NCBI GenBank assembly: GCA_965219445.1
Contig: CBDCNQ010000002.1
Coordinates: forward strand, 512,001 to 576,000
Direction: 5' to 3'
DNA: 64,000 bases
From: Longimicrobiales bacterium
Lineage (GTDB): Bacteria > Gemmatimonadota > Gemmatimonadetes > Longimicrobiales > Gaopeijiaceae
The notes beneath the pieces were generated by a model, which was not told where the DNA came from, did not search any database, and saw only the letters and a list, made by a program, of their open reading frames with translations. Within the stretch, counting starts at the first letter, position 1; the number at the start of each line of letters is the position of its first letter. The position numbers were made by a program, and so were the translations under genes. Shown one piece after another: positions 9,163-18,501 of the stretch.

Positions 9163-10561
9163 TCAGCCCTGTCCGTGCACTTTTACCGGGGCCCACGGTT
9201 GGCTCAGAATGGACGTGCCGGCCTGGCCCAGATCGTTGGCGCCCCAGCACCAGACATCTCCGTCCGCGGTCAAACCGCAGGTGTGTTGCCTTCCCGCCGC
9301 GACCTGGGTAAACGTGTGACCCCCGGTGACGGCAACGGGCTCCTCACGATATTCGGTGGTGCCGTCACCTAATCGACCCTCTCCGTTCTCGCCCCAGCAC
9401 CACGCAGCACCCCCCGTGGTCAGCCCGCACGTGTGGACGCCCCCGCCACTGATCGCGGCAAACGGACCGAACCCGACCATCGGAGCATATACGCTGCGTG
9501 CAAAATCGTAGCAGAACACCGACCCCAGAGAGGTGCGCGCGCAACGTCCGCTTACCTGTACAAAGAGGGAATCGGCCGTCAGACCCGTGGCCACGGGCAT
9601 CCGCAGGGGCACATACGAGCACCGCACCTGGATCGGGCCTCCCGCCTTGTCCACACCGTTCTGACAGGTCTCGGTGCCTGCCAGCGTCGGGCTGAAATTG
9701 TCGAGGTTACCCCAGCAGTAGAGGTGGCCCGCGTCGGTCACCCCGCAGGTCGTCGCCTCATGCGTATCGAGCGAGACCCACTGAAGGTCCCCGGCGACCA
9801 ATTCGGGTGTGGCGACGGGCCCGCTGCGTTGATTGCCACCCAACTTCCCAGTGCTGTTATCACCCCAGCAGTACGCGGCCCCAATGGAAGTCAGCCCGCA
9901 CGTGTGGCCCCAGGCGAGGGTCAGGGTGGTGAACGCCCGGCCGCCCGAGACCGCGACCGGATCGAAGAACCAGCGGCGTTCCGACACGCCGAGTTGCAGT
10001 GTGAAGTTGTCGCCCCAGCACCATGCGCTGCCGAACGTATCCAGACTGCACGCGTGAGAGCTACTCACCTGGACCGAGCGAGCGTCGGTCTTTCGGGGCA
10101 CGGGCATCGGACTGCACGGTGTACCCCAGCAGGTACTAATTGCGGGATCGACCCCCCATTGCCCGAGTTGGGAGCTACTCCCGGTTCCCCAGCAAAGGGC
10201 GATGTCGCCTTCGGAGACGGCGCACGAAGCCCGCCCGCCCGCTGCAATGTCCGTGACGGGCCCCATGACGACGGTGTCTGGTACGAACACGGCCAGAGAG
10301 TCCACGAGCCCGCCGGCTTCCGCCACCAGGAATGTGCGACCAGGCGCCCGCGCCTGGATGATTCTCGTGGGATCGTTCGGGGAGTCGGGACCGCTCGGGG
10401 AGAAACGAGGGGCGCCGACGTCGGAGGCGATCGAGCGATCGCGGATGATCCAGTTGATTTCGGCGGTAGGAGGTGTCTCGAAGCACCCCGATTGCACCCA
10501 CGCCTGATCTGCCGATCCCACCACCAGATGCAGGGAATCAGGGAAGAGGGCGACGTCGGTA
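9163..10561 (-). pseudogene. RCC1/BLIP-II repeat beta-propeller protein, 5'-truncated at the IS256 left end
   Basis: Repeated HTCGLT..G.A(W/Y)CWG.N..G.LG units. The frame (..TDVALFPDSLHLVVGS..) runs up to the IS256 repeat at 10562 with no signal peptide. Could still be translated from GTG at 10524. Confidence 0.75.
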
Positions 10562-10722
10562 GAGCTAGGATCAAAGGCATCATAGGGGCATGGCGACCGC
10601 TACCGGTACCGATCAGCAGCGAAGCAGCCCGAAGACGAAGAGGCGTTCTCCTCCGGGAACGGGTGCGCGTTCATCATTGTTCGCGCAAGGAAGCAACCCA
10701 CCTATCCAAGAGGAGAACGCCG

Positions 10723-11970
10723 ATGGAGAGATATATCGGACTCGACGCACACGCGTCGAGCTGCACGCTGGGGATTGTAGGCCCCAGCGGCAAGCGCTTG
10801 GGCTCGCAGGTGGTGGAGACGAACGCGCGGGCGCTGATCGAGGTGCTGCGAGGGATTCCGAGGAACCGGCACTTGTGCCTGGAAGAAGGGACGCTGTCGG
10901 GGTGGCTGTACGAGGTGCTGGAGCCGCACGTGGAGGAGCTGACGGTGGCGGGGGTCGGCAAGAGCCGGGGCCCGAAGACCGACAAGCTGGACGCGTTTGC
11001 CCTGGCGGAGAAGCTGCGGATCGGATCACTGGAGACGAGGGTCTACAAGAACCGGGGCCAGTTCAGGCGGCTGGGGGAACGGGCGAAGAGCTACGACTTC
11101 CTGGTCGGCGACACGGTGCGGGTGAAGAACCGGCTCAAGAGCGTGCTGCGCTCGAGAGGAGTGGCCTACGGCGCGGGGCGCTCGGTCTACTTGAAGCGCG
11201 ACCGGGAGGAGTGGTTGGCCAAGCTGCCGGAAGCGAGCAGGACGACGGCCGGGTTGCTGTACGAGGAGCACGACGCACTCGTGGCATTGAGGGCGAAGGC
11301 CGAGAAGGCGTTGCTGGCGGAAGCACGCAAGCATCGAGAGTGGCATGTGCTGAAGACGTGCCCGGGTCTGGGTCCGATCCGGACGGCGGAGCTCCTGCCG
11401 GTGGTGGTGACGCCGTACCGGTTCCAGAGCCGGAGCAGGTTCTGGGCGTACTGCGGACTGGGCGTCGTGATGCGGAGCTCGTCGGACTGGGTGCGGGGTC
11501 CGGGTGGGCGGTGGGTAAGGGAACCGGTACAGCAGACGCGGGGGCTGAATCGGAACTTCAACCACACGCTGAAGCGTGTGTTCAAGGGCGCGGCGACGAC
11601 GGTGATCGGTCGGGCCGAAAACGAACCCTTGTACCGCCACTACGAGCGACTCCTGGAGGGGGGCACGAAGCCGAATCTGGCGAAGCTGACGATCGCGCGT
11701 CAGCTCGCCTCGATCGTGCTAGCGGTGTGGCGCACGGGCGAAGCGTACGACCCAAGAGACTGGAAGCGACGGAGTAAACCGGCCTGGGATCGGCGAGCGT
11801 GGGGTCGAAAGCGGTCACAACATGGGGTCCGACGAAACGGAAGCGAACCGGTTACAGGGGACAGCATCCATACACACCGTGGGCCGGGGCAGAGAGCCCA
11901 AGCCCCCACTCAAAGGCTATGCACCCCTGGAAGAGCCGAACGAAGCGATGGGCCACAGAGTCCCAGATAG
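10723..11970 (+). CDS. IS110-family DEDD transposase/recombinase; probable native stop at 11777 after a 1-nt frameshift
   Basis: AGGAG RBS and ATG at 10723. YIGLDAH, CLEEGT and KTDKLDA (DEDD), TCPGLGPI, FWAYCGLGVVMRSSS (serine loop), ARQLASIVLAVWRTGEAYDP. Confidence 0.93.
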   Translation: MERYIGLDAHASSCTLGIVGPSGKRLGSQVVETNARALIEVLRGIPRNRHLCLEEGTLSGWLYEVLEPHVEELTVAGVGKSRGPKTDKLDAFALAEKLRIGSLETRVYKNRGQFRRLGERAKSYDFLVGDTVRVKNRLKSVLRSRGVAYGAGRSVYLKRDREEWLAKLPEASRTTAGLLYEEHDALVALRAKAEKALLAEARKHREWHVLKTCPGLGPIRTAELLPVVVTPYRFQSRSRFWAYCGLGVVMRSSSDWVRGPGGRWVREPVQQTRGLNRNFNHTLKRVFKGAATTVIGRAENEPLYRHYERLLEGGTKPNLAKLTIARQLASIVLAVWRTGEAYDPRDWKRRSKPAWDRRAWGRKRSQHGVRRNGSEPVTGDSIHTHRGPGQRAQAPTQRLCTPGRAERSDGPQSPR

Positions 11971-11985
11971 AAGGATGGTTCCCGC
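11778..11985 (+). ncRNA. Putative bridge/seek RNA of the IS110 element (ends approximate)
   Basis: Hand folding: a 5' domain closed by AACCGG/CCGGTT; a stem CAGGGG..GCAT / ATGC.CCCCTG (11855-11929) enclosing an internal loop with target matches TACACACC and TCAAAGG; a second stem GAGCC/GGTTC enclosing ATAGAAGG, identical to the element's right end. Confidence 0.78.
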
Positions 11986-12144
11986 TCCAGAGCGGAGAAC
12001 GCGACGGCTGTGAACGTCTTCCGGACTGCGATGCGGACCCTGCGAGCGCACCCCTCCCCACCCTGAGTCGTCGACCGGGCAATCCAAACCATGCGGACGC
12101 CGACGGTCAAAAAATGAGCCGACGGCGCGTGGGGAAGGTGCGTC

Positions 12145-12167
12145 TTGACCGCCAGCCCCATAGAAGG
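12145..12167 (+). promoter_or_regulatory. -35 half of the IS110 circle-junction promoter
   Basis: TTGACC at 12145-12150 is followed by exactly 17 nt to the element end. The left end begins CATCAT (10578-10583), a -10-like hexamer. Confidence 0.7.
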
Positions 12168-12263
12168 GTGTGTAAAAAAAGAGGCGACGTACCTTTCCGC
12201 TAGGTAGTAAGAAGTTAACCAGCGAATCCCGGGTGAGCGCCCGGGGGAAAGGAACGATGCCTC

Positions 12264-13508
12264 GTGAGGAAGAATATGGTGGGACCCGAGAGTGAGTCCA
12301 GCACGCCGACGTGGGAGTGCTTGGAAGCGCTGGTTCGTGAGAAGGCCCAGGAGATGGTCCAGCGGATTCTGGAGGAGGAAGTGACGGAGTTGCTCGGCCG
12401 GGAGAAGTCGGAGCGGAAGACGGTCGTAGACCCGGCGCCAGGCTACCGCAACGGCTACGGCAAGGCTCGGCGGCTGGCGATGAGCTCGGGCACGATCATG
12501 CTCCGACGGCCCCGGGTTCGAGGCATTGAGGAGCGGTTCGAGAGTCGGGTGTTGCCGTTGTTCGCACGACGGACGAAGGAGGTGGGTGCTCTGCTTCCGG
12601 AGCTGTATCTGCACGGGCTGGCGGAGGGAGACTTCGAGCTGGCGATGCGGGGCCTGCTGGGCGAGGGGGCCCCGTTGTCGAAGTCTTCGATTTGGCGGCT
12701 GCGGGCGGGATGGACGGCGGAGTTCGAGGAATGGAGCCAGCGTCGCCTGGAGGGCCGTGAGGTCGTCTACGTATGGGCGGACGGGATCTACGTGAAGGCA
12801 GGGCTCGAGCGGGACAAGGCAGCGCTGCTGGTGGTTCTCGGTGCGATGCGAGACGGGACGAAGGAGGTGTTGGCCCTGAGATCGGGCTACCGAGAGTCGG
12901 TCGAGTCCTGGTCCGAGGTGTTGCGGGATCTGAAGGCACGCGGCATCGAGGCGCCCCGGCTTCTGATGGCGGACGGCAACGCGGCGATCTGGGGCGCAGT
13001 ACGGCAGGTATGGCCTGAGGCGGGCGAGCAACGGTGCTGGAACCACAAGATGAGGAACGTGCTGGACCGGCTGCCTCAGCGGGAGCAGAGCGAGGCGAAG
13101 GACCTTCTCAGGACCGTGGTCTACGCACCGAGGCGGTCCGAGGCGCTGAAGGCCCGTGAGGCGTTCGCCAGGCGCTACAGACCGTGGTATCCGAAGGCGG
13201 TGGATGTACTCGAGGACGACTGGGAGCGGATGGTGGCGTTCTACGACTTCCCCGAGGACCACTGGAAGCATCTACGCACGACGAACGTGGTCGAGAGCCC
13301 CTTTGCCGCAGTACGGCTCAGGACAACGGCGGCGAAGCGCTTCAAGCGGGTCGAGAGCGCTACGGCGCTGATCTGGAAGCTGCTCTTGGTGGCGGAGAAG
13401 CGCTTCAGAAGGCTCGACGCTCCTCACCTCCTCAAGGACGTATTTGAAGGAAGAAAGTTCGAAGACGGAAAGCCCGTCTCAACCCAACAGCGGAAAAACG
13501 CCGCCTGA
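12264..13508 (+). CDS. IS256-family (mutator-type) DDE transposase
   Basis: GYRNGY, ELYLHGL, VYVWADGIY, LMADG, QRCWNHKMRN (CxxH), LRTTNVVES. Appears intact. Confidence 0.95.
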   Translation: MRKNMVGPESESSTPTWECLEALVREKAQEMVQRILEEEVTELLGREKSERKTVVDPAPGYRNGYGKARRLAMSSGTIMLRRPRVRGIEERFESRVLPLFARRTKEVGALLPELYLHGLAEGDFELAMRGLLGEGAPLSKSSIWRLRAGWTAEFEEWSQRRLEGREVVYVWADGIYVKAGLERDKAALLVVLGAMRDGTKEVLALRSGYRESVESWSEVLRDLKARGIEAPRLLMADGNAAIWGAVRQVWPEAGEQRCWNHKMRNVLDRLPQREQSEAKDLLRTVVYAPRRSEALKAREAFARRYRPWYPKAVDVLEDDWERMVAFYDFPEDHWKHLRTTNVVESPFAAVRLRTTAAKRFKRVESATALIWKLLLVAEKRFRRLDAPHLLKDVFEGRKFEDGKPVSTQQRKNAA

Positions 13509-13537
13509 AACATTTACACACCTATTGACCCAACCTC

Positions 13538-14541
13538 AAAACCCCATGCGCGTGAGCCAATCCTGCCCTCGGATCGTGTAAGCGACCGAGATGTCACGGA
13601 GCTTTACGTAGCCCGCGTCCTCGATGAACTGGCTGGCCGGGCCCGTGAAGTGGGAGCCGATGCCGTCCAAGAACCATGTGGACCAGTTGATGGGCACGGA
13701 CGTCCTCGCCCCCGGCCCGGCGACATCGTACTGCTCGAGGAACGTCTCACCGAAGGTTTCGTTCTGCCCTGCGCCCTGGTACTGCTCGAGGTCCGCGTGC
13801 GTACCGTAAGTGTAGAGCGCACCCCTTGTGCCGTTCCACATTTGGCCGCCGTGCTTGAAGTCCAGGAGTGCGGAGATCCTCAGGTTGTCACCGATCCGGA
13901 CGTTGTTCCGGATACTGGCCGTCCAGTCCGCGTTCGCGTCCCCGATGACACGGCTCTGGGGATCCTGCTGGGGATAGCCGTCGGAGTGGATGTAGACGTC
14001 CCCTGCATTCCACTCCGTGTAGGTGGCGTCGATGTCCACATCGGTAGCCGTATCCAAGCTCCCGTTGCCGAAGCGAACGAAATCACTGCCGAAAAACACT
14101 CCAATGGGGTGGCAAAGGGTGATGTCGCCGCTGGCGTTCCGCTCCGGAGCGACCACGGAGTTCGTGATTCCCACAAAGCCCGTGAGCCCGAACTCCTCGG
14201 TCCCCGCAAGGTCCTGAGCACAGCTGTCGTTGGTGGCCCACTGGCCGACGACCTCCCACGATACTCCGCTCCTTTCCACGACGTTCGCTGCGGCGGTTAG
14301 TTCCCACCCCCGGTTCTCGAACTCCGCGGCGTTGGCGAACTTGCTGAAGAAACCCGTGCTGGGGGACACGTCCACCGCGAGAATTGCGTCCTTCGTCTGC
14401 TGATAGTAGTAGGTGACTCCCAACCTCAAGCGATTCTCCAAGAACGCGACGTCTGCGCCGGCCTCGTACTCGGTGGTACGCTCCGGCTTGATCTCGTTAT
14501 TGCCCAAGATGGTCTCGCGGACGACACCCTCGTTCCCCCCG
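13538..14541 (-). pseudogene. SusC/RagA-like TonB-dependent receptor, 3' fragment, truncated by IS256
   Basis: GNNEIKPERTTEYEAGAD, NAAEFENRGWEL, FIEDAGYVKLRDISVAY. Ends at ..RMGF with a stop created by the IS256 end; the usual final beta-strands are missing. Confidence 0.88.
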
Positions 14542-14614
14542 CCCTCTCTGCCAACTTACGTGAGACACGGAGCAGCTAAGGAATTAGAGTAGGGCGAAGG
14601 CAGAGAAACCGAGG

Positions 14615-15064
14615 ATGCTGAGACACCGAGAGAGAATGAAAGAGAATGGAATAGCCCCACCAACCTGGGACGGTAAGCGAAGCGCGGCAGCTCCTGCGGA
14701 CTCGGAGGTGGTAGATAGGCCGCTGCGCCGGCGGTTCGCTCCGTCGTACAAGCTGCGGATCGTCGAAGAAGCGGACCGGTGCACGGAGCCCGGAGAGGTT
14801 GGCCGACTCCTACGGCGGGAGGGCTTGTACTCGTCGCACCTGACGACATGGCGCAAGGCGGCGCATAGCGGGTCCCTGAAAGCGCTGTCGAAGAAACGAG
14901 GCCGTAAGCGCGAGCGCAATCCGCTGGAGGAGAAGGTGCGCAAGCTGGAGCGCGAGAACACTCGCCTCGAGAAGGAGCTCCAGAAGGCGCACTTGATCAT
15001 CGACGTCCAGGGAAAAGTTGCAGGGCTGCTGGGATTGAGCCTCGAGGACGGGACGAACTCATGA
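14615..15064 (+). CDS. IS3-family OrfA (HTH plus leucine zipper); start may be ATG at 14636
   Basis: RRRFAPSYKLRIVEEAD, LLRREGLYSSHLTTWR and a coiled coil. Slippery heptamer G GGA AAA at 15010-15016 whose -1 frame runs into OrfB. Confidence 0.88.
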   Translation: MLRHRERMKENGIAPPTWDGKRSAAAPADSEVVDRPLRRRFAPSYKLRIVEEADRCTEPGEVGRLLRREGLYSSHLTTWRKAAHSGSLKALSKKRGRKRERNPLEEKVRKLERENTRLEKELQKAHLIIDVQGKVAGLLGLSLEDGTNS

Positions 15065-16068
15065 AGGCGACCCAGGAGCTAGCCAAGCACGTAGGGGTGA
15101 AGCCCGCGTGCGATGCGCTCAGGGTGCCGCGAGCCACGTTCTACCGTCGTCGGAGTGCATCGACCGGGCATCAGCAGCCCCGCCCGACCCCCGCCCGGGC
15201 CTTAAGTGAGAGGGAGCGGGACAAGATTTTCGACACCCTGTGTTCGGAGCGGTTCGTGGACCGGTCCCCAGCCGAGGTGGTGGCGACGCTGCTCGACGAG
15301 GACGTCTACCTGTGCAGCGAGCGTACGATGTATCGCGTTCTGGCTTCCCAGGTGCCGGTTCAGGAGCGTCGAGCGCAGCGGAGTCATCCCAAATACCAGA
15401 AGCCCGAGTTGATGGCGAGGGGCCCGAACCAGGTCTGGTCCTGGGATATCACCCGGCTGCTGGGGCCGAAGAAGTGGAGTTACTTCTACCTCTACGTGAT
15501 CCTGGACATCTTCAGCCGCTACGTCGTGGGATGGATGGTGGCGGATCGGGAGAACTCTGCCCTGGCCAGCCGGCTGATCCAGCAGAGTTGCTTGAAGCAT
15601 GGCGTCCAGCCCCACCTCCTGACCCTGCATTCCGATCGAGGGGCTCCGATGACGAGCCAATGCACGGCTCAACTACTCGCCGATCTCGGCGTGACCCGCT
15701 CGTTGGGCCGACCCCAGGTCTCGGATGACAATCCGTTCTCCGAGGCTCAGTTCAAGACCTTGAAGTACCATCCCTCGTTTCCCGGCCGGTTCGGGGATCA
15801 GGGGCAAGCCAAGACCTTCTGTCGCTCGTTCTTCCGTTGGTATAATGCCGAGCACCGCCATGGCGGCATCTCGATGCTGACCCCCGAACAGGTCCACTTC
15901 GGTCACGCCGATCGGATCATCGCCTGCAGGAAGGCCGTGCTCCGTGAGGCATGGGCCGCTCATCCCGAGCGCTTCGTCTCCGGTGAGCCGAAGCCTAAAC
16001 CACTCCCGGAGGCCGTCTGGATCAATCCTCCCACCCCATCCCTCACGACACAGGAGATTGCTCTCTAA
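15061..16068 (+). CDS. IS3-family OrfB integrase-core transposase
   Basis: PNQVWSWDIT, ILDIFSRYVVGW, LHSDRG, SDDNPFSEAQFKTLK, YNAEHRHGGI. Confidence 0.93.
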   Translation: MKATQELAKHVGVKPACDALRVPRATFYRRRSASTGHQQPRPTPARALSERERDKIFDTLCSERFVDRSPAEVVATLLDEDVYLCSERTMYRVLASQVPVQERRAQRSHPKYQKPELMARGPNQVWSWDITRLLGPKKWSYFYLYVILDIFSRYVVGWMVADRENSALASRLIQQSCLKHGVQPHLLTLHSDRGAPMTSQCTAQLLADLGVTRSLGRPQVSDDNPFSEAQFKTLKYHPSFPGRFGDQGQAKTFCRSFFRWYNAEHRHGGISMLTPEQVHFGHADRIIACRKAVLREAWAAHPERFVSGEPKPKPLPEAVWINPPTPSLTTQEIAL

Positions 16069-16108
16069 TTGATTTCCAAGAGTGTCTCACTGGCGTTGAC
16101 AGGTTCCG

Positions 16109-18186
16109 CCGTAGGTGCTCAGGAGTCCATCGGGGAACAACCATGCATCGGTAAAGATTCCCGTGGTGAAGGCGCTGACATTGCTGAACAGATCCGGCTG
16201 CTTGCCGGCGACGCCATACGCGACCCGAAGCTTAGCGAAGCTCAGCGGTGTGTCTTCTACCCTGTTGGAGAGGTCCCAAGCCGCGCTGGCCTTGGGATAG
16301 ACGTACCGCTTGTCTTCTCCACCAAACGTGTTGGATCCGTCTAAACGCGCGCCAGCGGTCACGTACAGTTGGTCCCAAAGATCCACGGTACCCTGCGTGA
16401 AGTAGCCATCCGTACGCACTGTCGACGTGAACTCGTTGGGTATTTGGGCCACCGTAAAGTCGAGCTGACTCGTCCCCTCGAAGAGGGTGGATCCATTCAC
16501 GCGGTGCTGCCGGAACTCCCGGTGGTTGAGGTTCTGGCCGATCGAAAGCGTACCCAAAACGAAGTCACTGAGCTGTCTCGTGGCCGTGGCGATAAGGTTG
16601 GAGTCCAACTCGAAGGTCACGAAGTCCGCCCTTACGATCCGGCCGTCCGGGGAGTCCGTGGAGCTCTTGGGGACCACCTCCTTGCGCTCGTCGGCAGTGT
16701 AGTCGGAGCCGAGCATGTAGTTCACTTGGAGCCAGTTGAAGGGCGTGTACTGGGCGTTGATGTTCCCGAAGGTCCGGCCCACGTTCGCCGTGCTGGTAAT
16801 TTCGTTCGAAACCCAGAAGGGGTTGTCGAACCCCCGAGTCTCAGTCACAGACGTGGGATTTGGAAGCTGGTAGCTCCGGTGTAAGCCCTCAGCCGTAAGG
16901 TACGGTTTGTTGTTGAAGTCGGGTGGCGTGCGCAGCGCGCCGAGTTGCATGCTCGAACCACTGGACCCCTGCTGGATAAAGTCGCCCCGGCTATCCGCGA
17001 ACGAGAAATTCGCCGAGACTCGGAGGTCGTCCCGGAAGGCATGCCCGGCCCTCAAGCGCACGGTGGTGCGCTCGTACATTTGATTGCCCTTGATCACGCC
17101 GTTCTGGTCGAGCCGGCCCAGGGAAAGGTAGTAGTCGGTGGTCGCCGTGCCACCGGACCAGGTCAGGCCCAGCTCGCTGCGGAACGCGGTCTTGTAGAGC
17201 TCGTCCGCGTGGTCGAACACGGGAGTTCCGGACCCGATGGACGGTCCCCAGGTGAACGGACAACCACCCCCACCGCACAAATCCATACCGGGCATACCTT
17301 CCGGCGCGCCGTCCAGACCTTGGCCGAACCCTGTCTGAAGCGGGATCGTGCGGCTCACATCATCAATCGACAGCGAACTCCGGAATTCGACGCGGTTGGT
17401 CCCGGGTTGCCCCCGCTTGGTCGTGACCAGAACCACGCCGTTTCCGGCACGCGATCCGTACATGGCCGCCGCCGCGGCGCCCTTGAGAATCTGAATGCTC
17501 TCGATGTCGGTCGCGTTGAGGTCCATCGCTCGGTTACCCACCACGACTCCGGCGATGTTTACTCCGATCGTGTCGGAAGAGTTGTTGATGGGCTGCCCGT
17601 CCACGACGAACAGGGGCTGGTTGCTCCCGATCAGCGAATTGGCTCCCCGGATACGGATATAAGAGCCCGCACCGGGATCGCCACCCGAAGACGTCACTTC
17701 CACGTTGGGCGCCTTGCCCGCCAGCGCTGCCACGACGTTGGGCTCACGGCTCAGTACGATCTCATCGGCCCGAACCGTGTTGATCGTGACGCCGAGCTTT
17801 TGCCGCTGCATTTCGAGCCCCTGACCAATCACCACGATCTCGTCGAGCAGGAGGGGGTCCTCGCCGAGGCTGAAGTCGAGCTCTTGAGTGCCCGGACGCA
17901 GGGTGACCTGAAGGGTCTCGGAGGCGCGTCCGATCAAGCTTACGGACATCTCAACCGTCTGCCCCGTGGCGCGAGACGCCGGGACGATCAAGACGTACCG
18001 TCCGTCAGAGTTGCTCGCGACACCGATGTTCATCGATGGGATGAGAATGGCGGCAGCCATCAAGGGCTGCCCCTCGGGCGATGTGATTCTGCCCGCAAGC
18101 GTCGTGGGGTCTTGGGCTGATAAATTCGGGGCCGCGATCGTGCATCCAACCGTCAACATGAAGAGCAGACGGAATTGGAGATGCAT
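16109..18186 (-). pseudogene. SusC/RagA-like TonB-dependent receptor, 5' fragment
   Basis: GAGGAGG RBS and ATG at 18186. Signal peptide, carboxypeptidase-regulatory-like domain, plug motifs IRIRGANS, PLFVVDG and DIESIQILKGAAAAAMYGSRAGNGVVLVTTKRG. Confidence 0.92.
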
Positions 18187-18501
18187 ACAACCTCCTCGGC
18201 GATGGCTCGGAAGCGACGAAGGCGTCGAGGAGGCAAAAGCTCGAGAAGAACCGGTATTTGGCGCTCCCACCCCCCCATCCCCCTGCAGCAAGAAAGTTAG
18301 GTCTGAGCCGAAGAGGGGTGCAAGAACTTTTTTCCCCTGAGTGGGAGCCCCGACGCCGATGGCGACTCGCCTCGAGGGAGCACTTCTTTCGCTCGAAGAA
18401 AGTAAATCCATCATCGATGACAGAGAGCCCTATGCACTCCTTGAGTGCATGACCCATACTGTGAGCATGATGTCGAAATCCTCCTCGGGTGAGAGCTCGC
18501 G

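Follow-up and report, generated by a model that had tools for sequence, protein, structure and literature searches.

An IS110-family element with a predicted two-loop bridge RNA aimed at the left terminal repeat of an IS256-family element

Within the window, the whole stretch of 64,000 nucleotides analysed here (contig CBDCNQ010000002.1 of a Longimicrobiales bacterium, positions 512,001 to 576,000), a 1590-bp (1.59-kb) IS110-family element occupies 10577-12166 and, inserted after base 15, interrupts the left terminal repeat (IRL) of an IS256-family element, the IS110-family recombinase gene preceding the IS256-family transposase gene in the 5′ to 3′ direction. The reading favoured here, to which a probability of roughly 0.9 is given, is that a predicted two-loop bridge RNA from the 3′ end of the element guides the recombinase to one base inside the IS256 left terminal repeat, an insertion that would disable that end. 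That the recombinase is guided to the IS256 end had been proposed in an initial annotation of this DNA, and the proposal is supported by site use, by unpaired guide strands and by the co-variation of guides with flanks. The features of the locus are collected in Table 1.

Table 1. Coordinates of the IS110-family element, its predicted RNA and its IS256-family host, numbered from the first letter of the window
Feature	Position	Strand	Basis
IS256 left terminal repeat, outer 15 bp; contains left target TCAA and AG core (10575-10576)	10562..10576	+	Same 15-mer upstream of 23 IS110 copies; uninterrupted form 45 times in G403
IS110-family element, 1590 bp, single core copy at right end	10577..12166	+	24 left and 24 right ends in G000; limits set by comparing junctions among relatives
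IS110 left end: right donor half, predicted -10 box CATCAT (10578-10583), imperfect subterminal repeat arm (10585-10595)	10577..10595	+	Sequence; promoter role inferred
DEDD recombinase gene, 351 aa in intact copies; D7, E54/55, D87, D90, S253; 1-nt frameshift near 11750 in window copy as assembled	10723..11777	+	PF01548, PF02371; residues invariant, aligned to IS621
Predicted target-binding stem-loop of bridge RNA, 75 nt	11855..11929	+	Consensus fold, compensatory changes
5′ guide strand, reverse complement of right target 12167-12174	11871..11878	+	Sequence; co-variation
3′ guide strand, same sense as left target and core; last bases GC match post-insertion junction (putatively handshake-like)	11910..11917	+	Sequence; co-variation
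Predicted donor-binding stem-loop; 3′ strand ATAGAAG (11967-11973) equals element right end; 5′ strand GATG (11947-11950) complements left end	11934..11980	+	Consensus fold
IS110 right end: predicted -35 box TTGACC (12145-12150), repeat arm (12150-12159), left donor half and core (12160-12166)	12145..12166	+	Sequence
Inner part of IS256 IRL: right target GGTGTGTA, overlaps IS256-family motif TGTAAA	12167..12176	+	Sequence; motif from available parts of PMC7780238
IS256-family (Mutator DDE) transposase, 414 aa, intact frame	12264..13508	+	PF00872; NF033543 297.8 bits vs cut-off 150
IS256 right terminal repeat, 20/25 bases match IRL; core shifted one base; unused by window guide	13513..13537	-	Sequence; 29 right ends intact in G000

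The window copy presents AAGG at both of its junctions, and relatives with another first base in the right flank narrow the shared core to AG (10575-10576 / 12165-12166). G10577 is therefore the first base of the element, so that the initial annotation had been right in reading TCAAAGG at 10571-10577 and had counted one element base too many as left flank. When the flanks are joined with one core copy, the intact IRL of two other genomes, G403 and G401, is obtained; the element itself lacks terminal repeats, and no target duplication extends beyond the shared core. The empty site that had been put together from the two flanks is real: the intact left repeat was found 45 times in G403 and five times in G401, genomes in each of which one IS110 copy was found, as well as once in G402, and the intact empty IS256 left end also occurred as loose ends in all four DNA runs. 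In three relatives (L032, L048 and L121) the core region was duplicated by 3 bases at the right junction, which suggests occasional imprecise insertion, and in L002, L028 and G000:C5:1612735-1613268 the right end of the element, RNA included, was partly duplicated in tandem.

The G-[CG]-AT[CT]AT start of the element is conserved in relatives, its subterminal repeat measures 10 bp with a bulge and lies 8 and 7 bp from the ends, and its non-coding ends measure 389 nt on the right versus 146 nt on the left. The spacing TTGACC-17 bp-CATCAT arises only across joined element ends, as at a putative circle junction; such a junction had no match in the assembly and none among the joints of four DNA runs, which were searched as contigs, a form that drops rare molecules.

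The recombinase contains an N-terminal DEDD RuvC-like domain (PF01548, 39.2 bits) and a C-terminal Transposase_20 domain (PF02371, 32.4 bits), both exceeding the cut-off, and the five catalytic positions of Table 1, matched by alignment to those of IS621, were invariant across the 11 sequences of alignment A1. The NCBIfam IS110 model NF033542 matched the first 342 aa over its full length with 113 bits (E 1.6e-32), short of its curated cut-off of 140, and the best annotated plasmid hits shared 26-28% identity. Judged by its sequence, the protein is best assigned to a divergent clade within the IS110 family in the wide sense, with a 3′ RNA. In the window copy one C is missing near 11750 and the open reading frame runs through the loop to 11970, as in the 5 of 23 copies that lack this base. 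However, since 17 of the 23 copies encode a 351-aa protein that stops before the RNA, and since the C is present in contigs of all four DNA runs, the read-through most likely stems from an assembly error or from a frameshift private to this copy. The earlier description of the IS110 3′ end as non-coding holds in this way for the element as a whole, although not for the window copy as assembled.

It had been reported from the letters alone that TACACACC stands at 11871-11878 and TCAAAGG at both 11910-11916 and 10571-10577, the two loop strands lying between a stem and a capping hairpin; the strings are in place and the structure folds as described. The single-sequence fold was unremarkable (z -1.71 for the target stem-loop, z -1.15 for the whole end). 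In an alignment of 38 diverse right ends drawn from 189 related loci, two stem-loops with internal loops were recovered, with 95% of stem cells paired and two-sided changes in 11 of the 25 stem pairs, values that clearly exceeded those of shuffled and slid controls. Both guide strands were unpaired in this consensus, so that the matches to the flanks do not fall in stems, and the chance of finding both guide words in a resampled 390-nt end was about 1.2e-4. The target loop of the proposed bridge- or seek-type RNA was borne out in this manner; the second, donor-binding loop at 11934-11980 had been overlooked. An A/G variant of the right end agreed with the 3′ strand of this donor loop in all 41 distinct guide sets for which a right end was parsed, an agreement that may reflect two lineages and not repeated change, and the 5′ donor strand matched by 4 bases only, with poor co-variation. 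Three loci with mis-parsed loops (L050, L054 and L055) were left out of the donor-loop comparison and kept in the protein trees, where their labels alone are affected. Rfam returned no match to the RNA at E values up to 1, and for six RNA runs 6-14% of words were shared.

The guide strands were further compared with the flanks of each related locus. The 189 loci, the closest named of which are Longimicrobiales assemblies, with Myxococcota among the others, comprised 28 partial genes, 80 loci that were not parsed and 81 that were. Window-type elements were dropped from this set by the anchor pattern, and the test is therefore independent of them. The 3′ guide strand agreed with its own left flank at 4.72 of 6 positions versus 2.90 after permutation (47 distinct guide pairs), and the reverse complement of the 5′ guide agreed with its own right flank at 6.22 of 8 positions versus 3.73 (36 pairs); for the latter, the best of three registers was taken in both observed and permuted data. 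The register between 5′ guide and right target slides by 1-2 bases among relatives. None of 5000 permutations reached the observed value on either side, and the same held for guides at least three letters apart (8 and 26). The co-variation of loop strands with flanks that the initial annotation had suggested looking for is thus present. The second core base agreed with the guide in 46 of 46 cases, and a layout control in 25 elements (5.76/5.24 versus 3.36/3.12) gave the top-strand complement as the first guide in order. On the same scaffold, relatives with other guides occupy other insertion sites. A second element variant was seen in G557 (L231, L236, L241 and L245), whose guide and target differ at one same position with non-matching letters.

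The use of sites was followed in the window's genome (G000), which contains 24 left and 24 right IS110 ends. Of these, 23 left junctions lie in an IS256 IRL and 21 right junctions continue into IS256. The remaining left junction (C2:336726) is not in IS256, yet it matches the guide, so that copies at unrelated sites, which would have spoken against the initial proposal, were not found. Non-IS256 flanks resembling the guide were observed at four loci (C2:336726 in G000, L249, L245 and L228), two of which match the guide's own upstream base, C, and not that of IS256; the off-site copies in G374, G557 and G628 follow the guide rather than an IS256 context. Among the 28 IS256 left ends of G000, 23 are occupied and five are empty, all five being altered within the 14-bp target, and no perfect empty site is left in the assembly of this genome. 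In G000, 29 IS256 right ends were found intact, and no IS110 left junction has a right-end flank.

These observations bear on two other accounts of how the element came to lie in so many IS256 left ends. It could be supposed that one ancient insertion spread as a passenger of an IS256 that transposed as a 3-kb composite, the guide match being a relic; this is improbable. It would agree with seven occupied units in which an 8-9 bp target duplication surrounds the entire composite, and with 20 of 26 clustered inner IS256 left ends belonging to one subtype, but the duplication is equally expected if IS256 moved first, and the same IS110 element is found at non-IS256 sites and in IS256 subtypes only 77-80% identical to one another. 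Moreover, 15 complete composite units carry 14 IS110 haplotypes on 4 IS256 haplotypes without linkage between the two (Mantel r -0.02, p 0.52; within-element controls p 0.014 and 0.006). Because the haplotypes are unlinked, repeated insertion is favoured, and the insertions look independent of one another rather than products of composite transposition; gene conversion or chimeric assembly could blur haplotype linkage, and a part of the copies may have moved as composites. A choice of site by protein contact, through IS256 transposase bound at its end or through DNA shape, with the RNA match secondary, is very improbable. The target is indeed a protein-binding site and nearly all copies lie in IS256, but the right repeat, bound by the same transposase, is not used by this guide, the off-site copies track the guide and not IS256, and same-scaffold relatives with other guides are found elsewhere.

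Under guidance by a two-loop bridge RNA, the element would circularise by joining its right end to its left end at the AG core, which, by analogy with IS621, would create the promoter TTGACC-17-CATCAT. The donor loop would pair with this circle junction. In the target loop, the 3′ strand would pair with bottom-strand DNA on the left side of the core and the 5′ strand with top-strand DNA on its right side, and the recombinase would exchange strands at AG, leaving the target unduplicated. It is doubtful that the target loop acts alone, in the form of a short processed seekRNA, with the protein reading the element ends as in the model of Siddiquee et al. and the donor loop dispensable. SeekRNAs of 70-100 nt are described as the abundant species in PMC11187229, the target stem-loop here measures 75 nt, and the 5′ donor match is short; against this, the second stem-loop is equally conserved, it has compensatory pairs, and the 3′ strand of its loop agrees with the right end in every one of the 41 sets given above. 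This alternative alters the extent of the RNA and not its target.

The consequence for the host follows from the position of the insertion. When the outer 15 bp of the IRL (10562-10576) are rejoined with the inner part from 12167, the repeat matches the right repeat at 20 of 25 bases. For ISCth4, another IS256-family element, the available parts of PMC7780238 describe TGTAAA as a conserved family motif and transposase binding to bp 1-12 and 14-25. Insertion after bp 15 would part the IRL tip from most of the subterminal site, and that IS256 end is expected to be disabled; since the site separates the halves bound by the transposase of ISCth4, an occupied IS256 would be immobile until IS110 excises. 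A target duplication of 8-9 bp was seen in 9 of 28 IS256 units, whereas the window copy has none and its flanks are swapped; in 10 of the 28 the partner of the left duplication is found at another copy alone, which suggests either that copies have rearranged with one another or that they were mis-assembled. Around the window copy, an RCC1-repeat lipoprotein gene (9163-10561) is truncated at the IS256 left end, and the start of this gene, with a matching 8-bp duplication, lies about 93 kb away beside another IS256::IS110 unit (G000:C2:618516 onward). A TonB-dependent receptor gene on the minus strand (13536-18414) is interrupted by an IS (14615-16068) that has an rve integrase domain, and it is cut once more at the IS256 right end.

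An occupied junction was present in 7 of 401 genomes of the order, and the state of the remaining empty ends differed among genomes. In three of them all 16 empty IS256 ends had target changes (5/5 in G000; 10/10 in G374, eight with one common core change; 1/1 in G221), and the same was true of 2/3 in G402, against 2/52 in G403 and G401 together. It was considered on this basis that saturation is general wherever a genome has several IS110 copies (in G000, G374, G221 and G402, 18 of 19 empty ends are altered), but this generalisation failed out of sample, as the empty ends tested later in G628 (5/5) and G557 (1/1) were intact despite several IS110 copies. For the same reason, the escape of IS256 from IS110 through altered ends is only a hypothesis, and an unproven one. 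The altered ends may also be pre-existing IS256 variants that were left over, and an unproven reading takes two of those in G000 as scars of imprecise excision. All five intact empty ends of G628 lie within one 113-kb stretch (C4:732-113085), perhaps recently acquired DNA.

Relatives of the window element differ in their aim. L113, which is 69% identical to it, has the same aim and is located in an IS256 left end, whereas closer relatives (76-82% identity) have other targets. A tree uniting the four IS256-aimed rows was rejected (p-AU 8.6e-07, 28 rows), L113 falling outside the window clade; L127 (a mis-framed row), L055 and L073 (internal stops) were left out of the tree. As far as one locus can indicate, this placement would mean that the aim arose independently, that guides were exchanged, or that an old aim has been lost on several occasions. 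In L039 (95% identity) the guide is shifted and the left flank is IS256 right-end sequence. Seven further relatives of 40-77% identity (L005, L007, L009, L014, L020, L023 and L030) have flanks with GTTRRRY / RYYYAAC-like words, which we take to be the integron attC core, and the clade may also have attC-aimed members. A wider and tentative reading, on the unlikely side, makes the element an RNA-guided hyperparasite in an arms race, in which IS110 would disable IS256 left ends until only target-mutated IS256 stayed mobile and spread, as the eight copies of one core-mutated end in G374 might suggest. The guide would have acquired this aim on two independent occasions (L113 and the window clade) and in one case (L039) would have been re-tuned to the right end.

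An RNA-guided mechanism and the targeting of terminal repeats are already known, and the IS256 target is likely new. In the literature searched, no paper was found on an IS256 target for an IS110 element, nor any combining IS110, IS256 and "bridge RNA"; ISfinder and TnPedia, which lie beyond that search, may hold precedent. Neither PMC11187229 nor PMC11208160 mentions IS256 in its main text or searchable supplements, and it does not occur in the main text of bioRxiv 10.64898/2026.08.14.744561 either. The locus and its relatives offer an unusually complete natural record of bridge-RNA targeting read from sequence, which extends from two dozen copies and empty sites to off-target insertions and relatives aimed elsewhere, and they add a divergent recombinase clade with an AG core and a two-loop right-end RNA that could serve as a scaffold for programmable recombination. 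Should occupancy immobilise IS256, this would be a testable case of RNA-guided control of one mobile element by another, and the arms-race reading, if true, would make it a natural programmable brake on another transposon family.

Partridge and Hall reportedly placed IS4321 and IS5075 in Tn21-like terminal repeats in 2003. These elements of the IS1111 group insert into the terminal repeat of Tn21-like transposons according to the available parts of PMC5001619, and the window element resembles them as an IS110-family element inserted at one fixed site, in a single orientation, within the terminal repeat of a different mobile element, and in the promoter layout predicted for its putative circle junction. 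However, the host is an IS256-family (Mutator) IS here and a Tn3-family transposon there, and the window element lacks the 11-13 bp near-perfect subterminal repeats and belongs to another recombinase clade. With the IS1111 group, whose seekRNA elements ISEc11, ISKpn4 and ISPa11 are treated in the available parts of PMC11187229, it shares a long non-coding region downstream of the recombinase and the order of the guides. In contrast to that group, GLGVVMRSSS stands in place of the GL-P----S(t)G motif, the repeats are shorter, bulged and differently spaced (10 bp, 8 and 7 bp from the ends, against 11-13 bp near-perfect repeats 7 and 3 bp from the ends), and, unlike in the three named elements, a second, donor-matching internal loop follows the target loop. 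With its differing subterminal repeats and motif, the window element would be placed outside the IS1111 group in the narrow sense.

ISEc21, of the IS110 group, targets IS3-family transposase genes at catalytic codons and has an upstream RNA, as described in the same partly available source (PMC11187229). The window element is similarly an RNA-guided IS aimed at a conserved site of another IS family, but its site is a terminal repeat and its RNA lies in the right end. The likeness to IS621 (PMC11208160 and the available parts of PMC13626964; PDB 8wt6, E 5.6e-08) includes a DEDD and serine recombinase, a target loop followed by a donor loop and a 2-nt core; if the minus strand is read instead, CT would be the core and the loop order would be that of IS621. 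Unlike in IS621, which has its RNA in the left end and targets REP sequences, the RNA is found in the right end, and the two proteins are distantly related.
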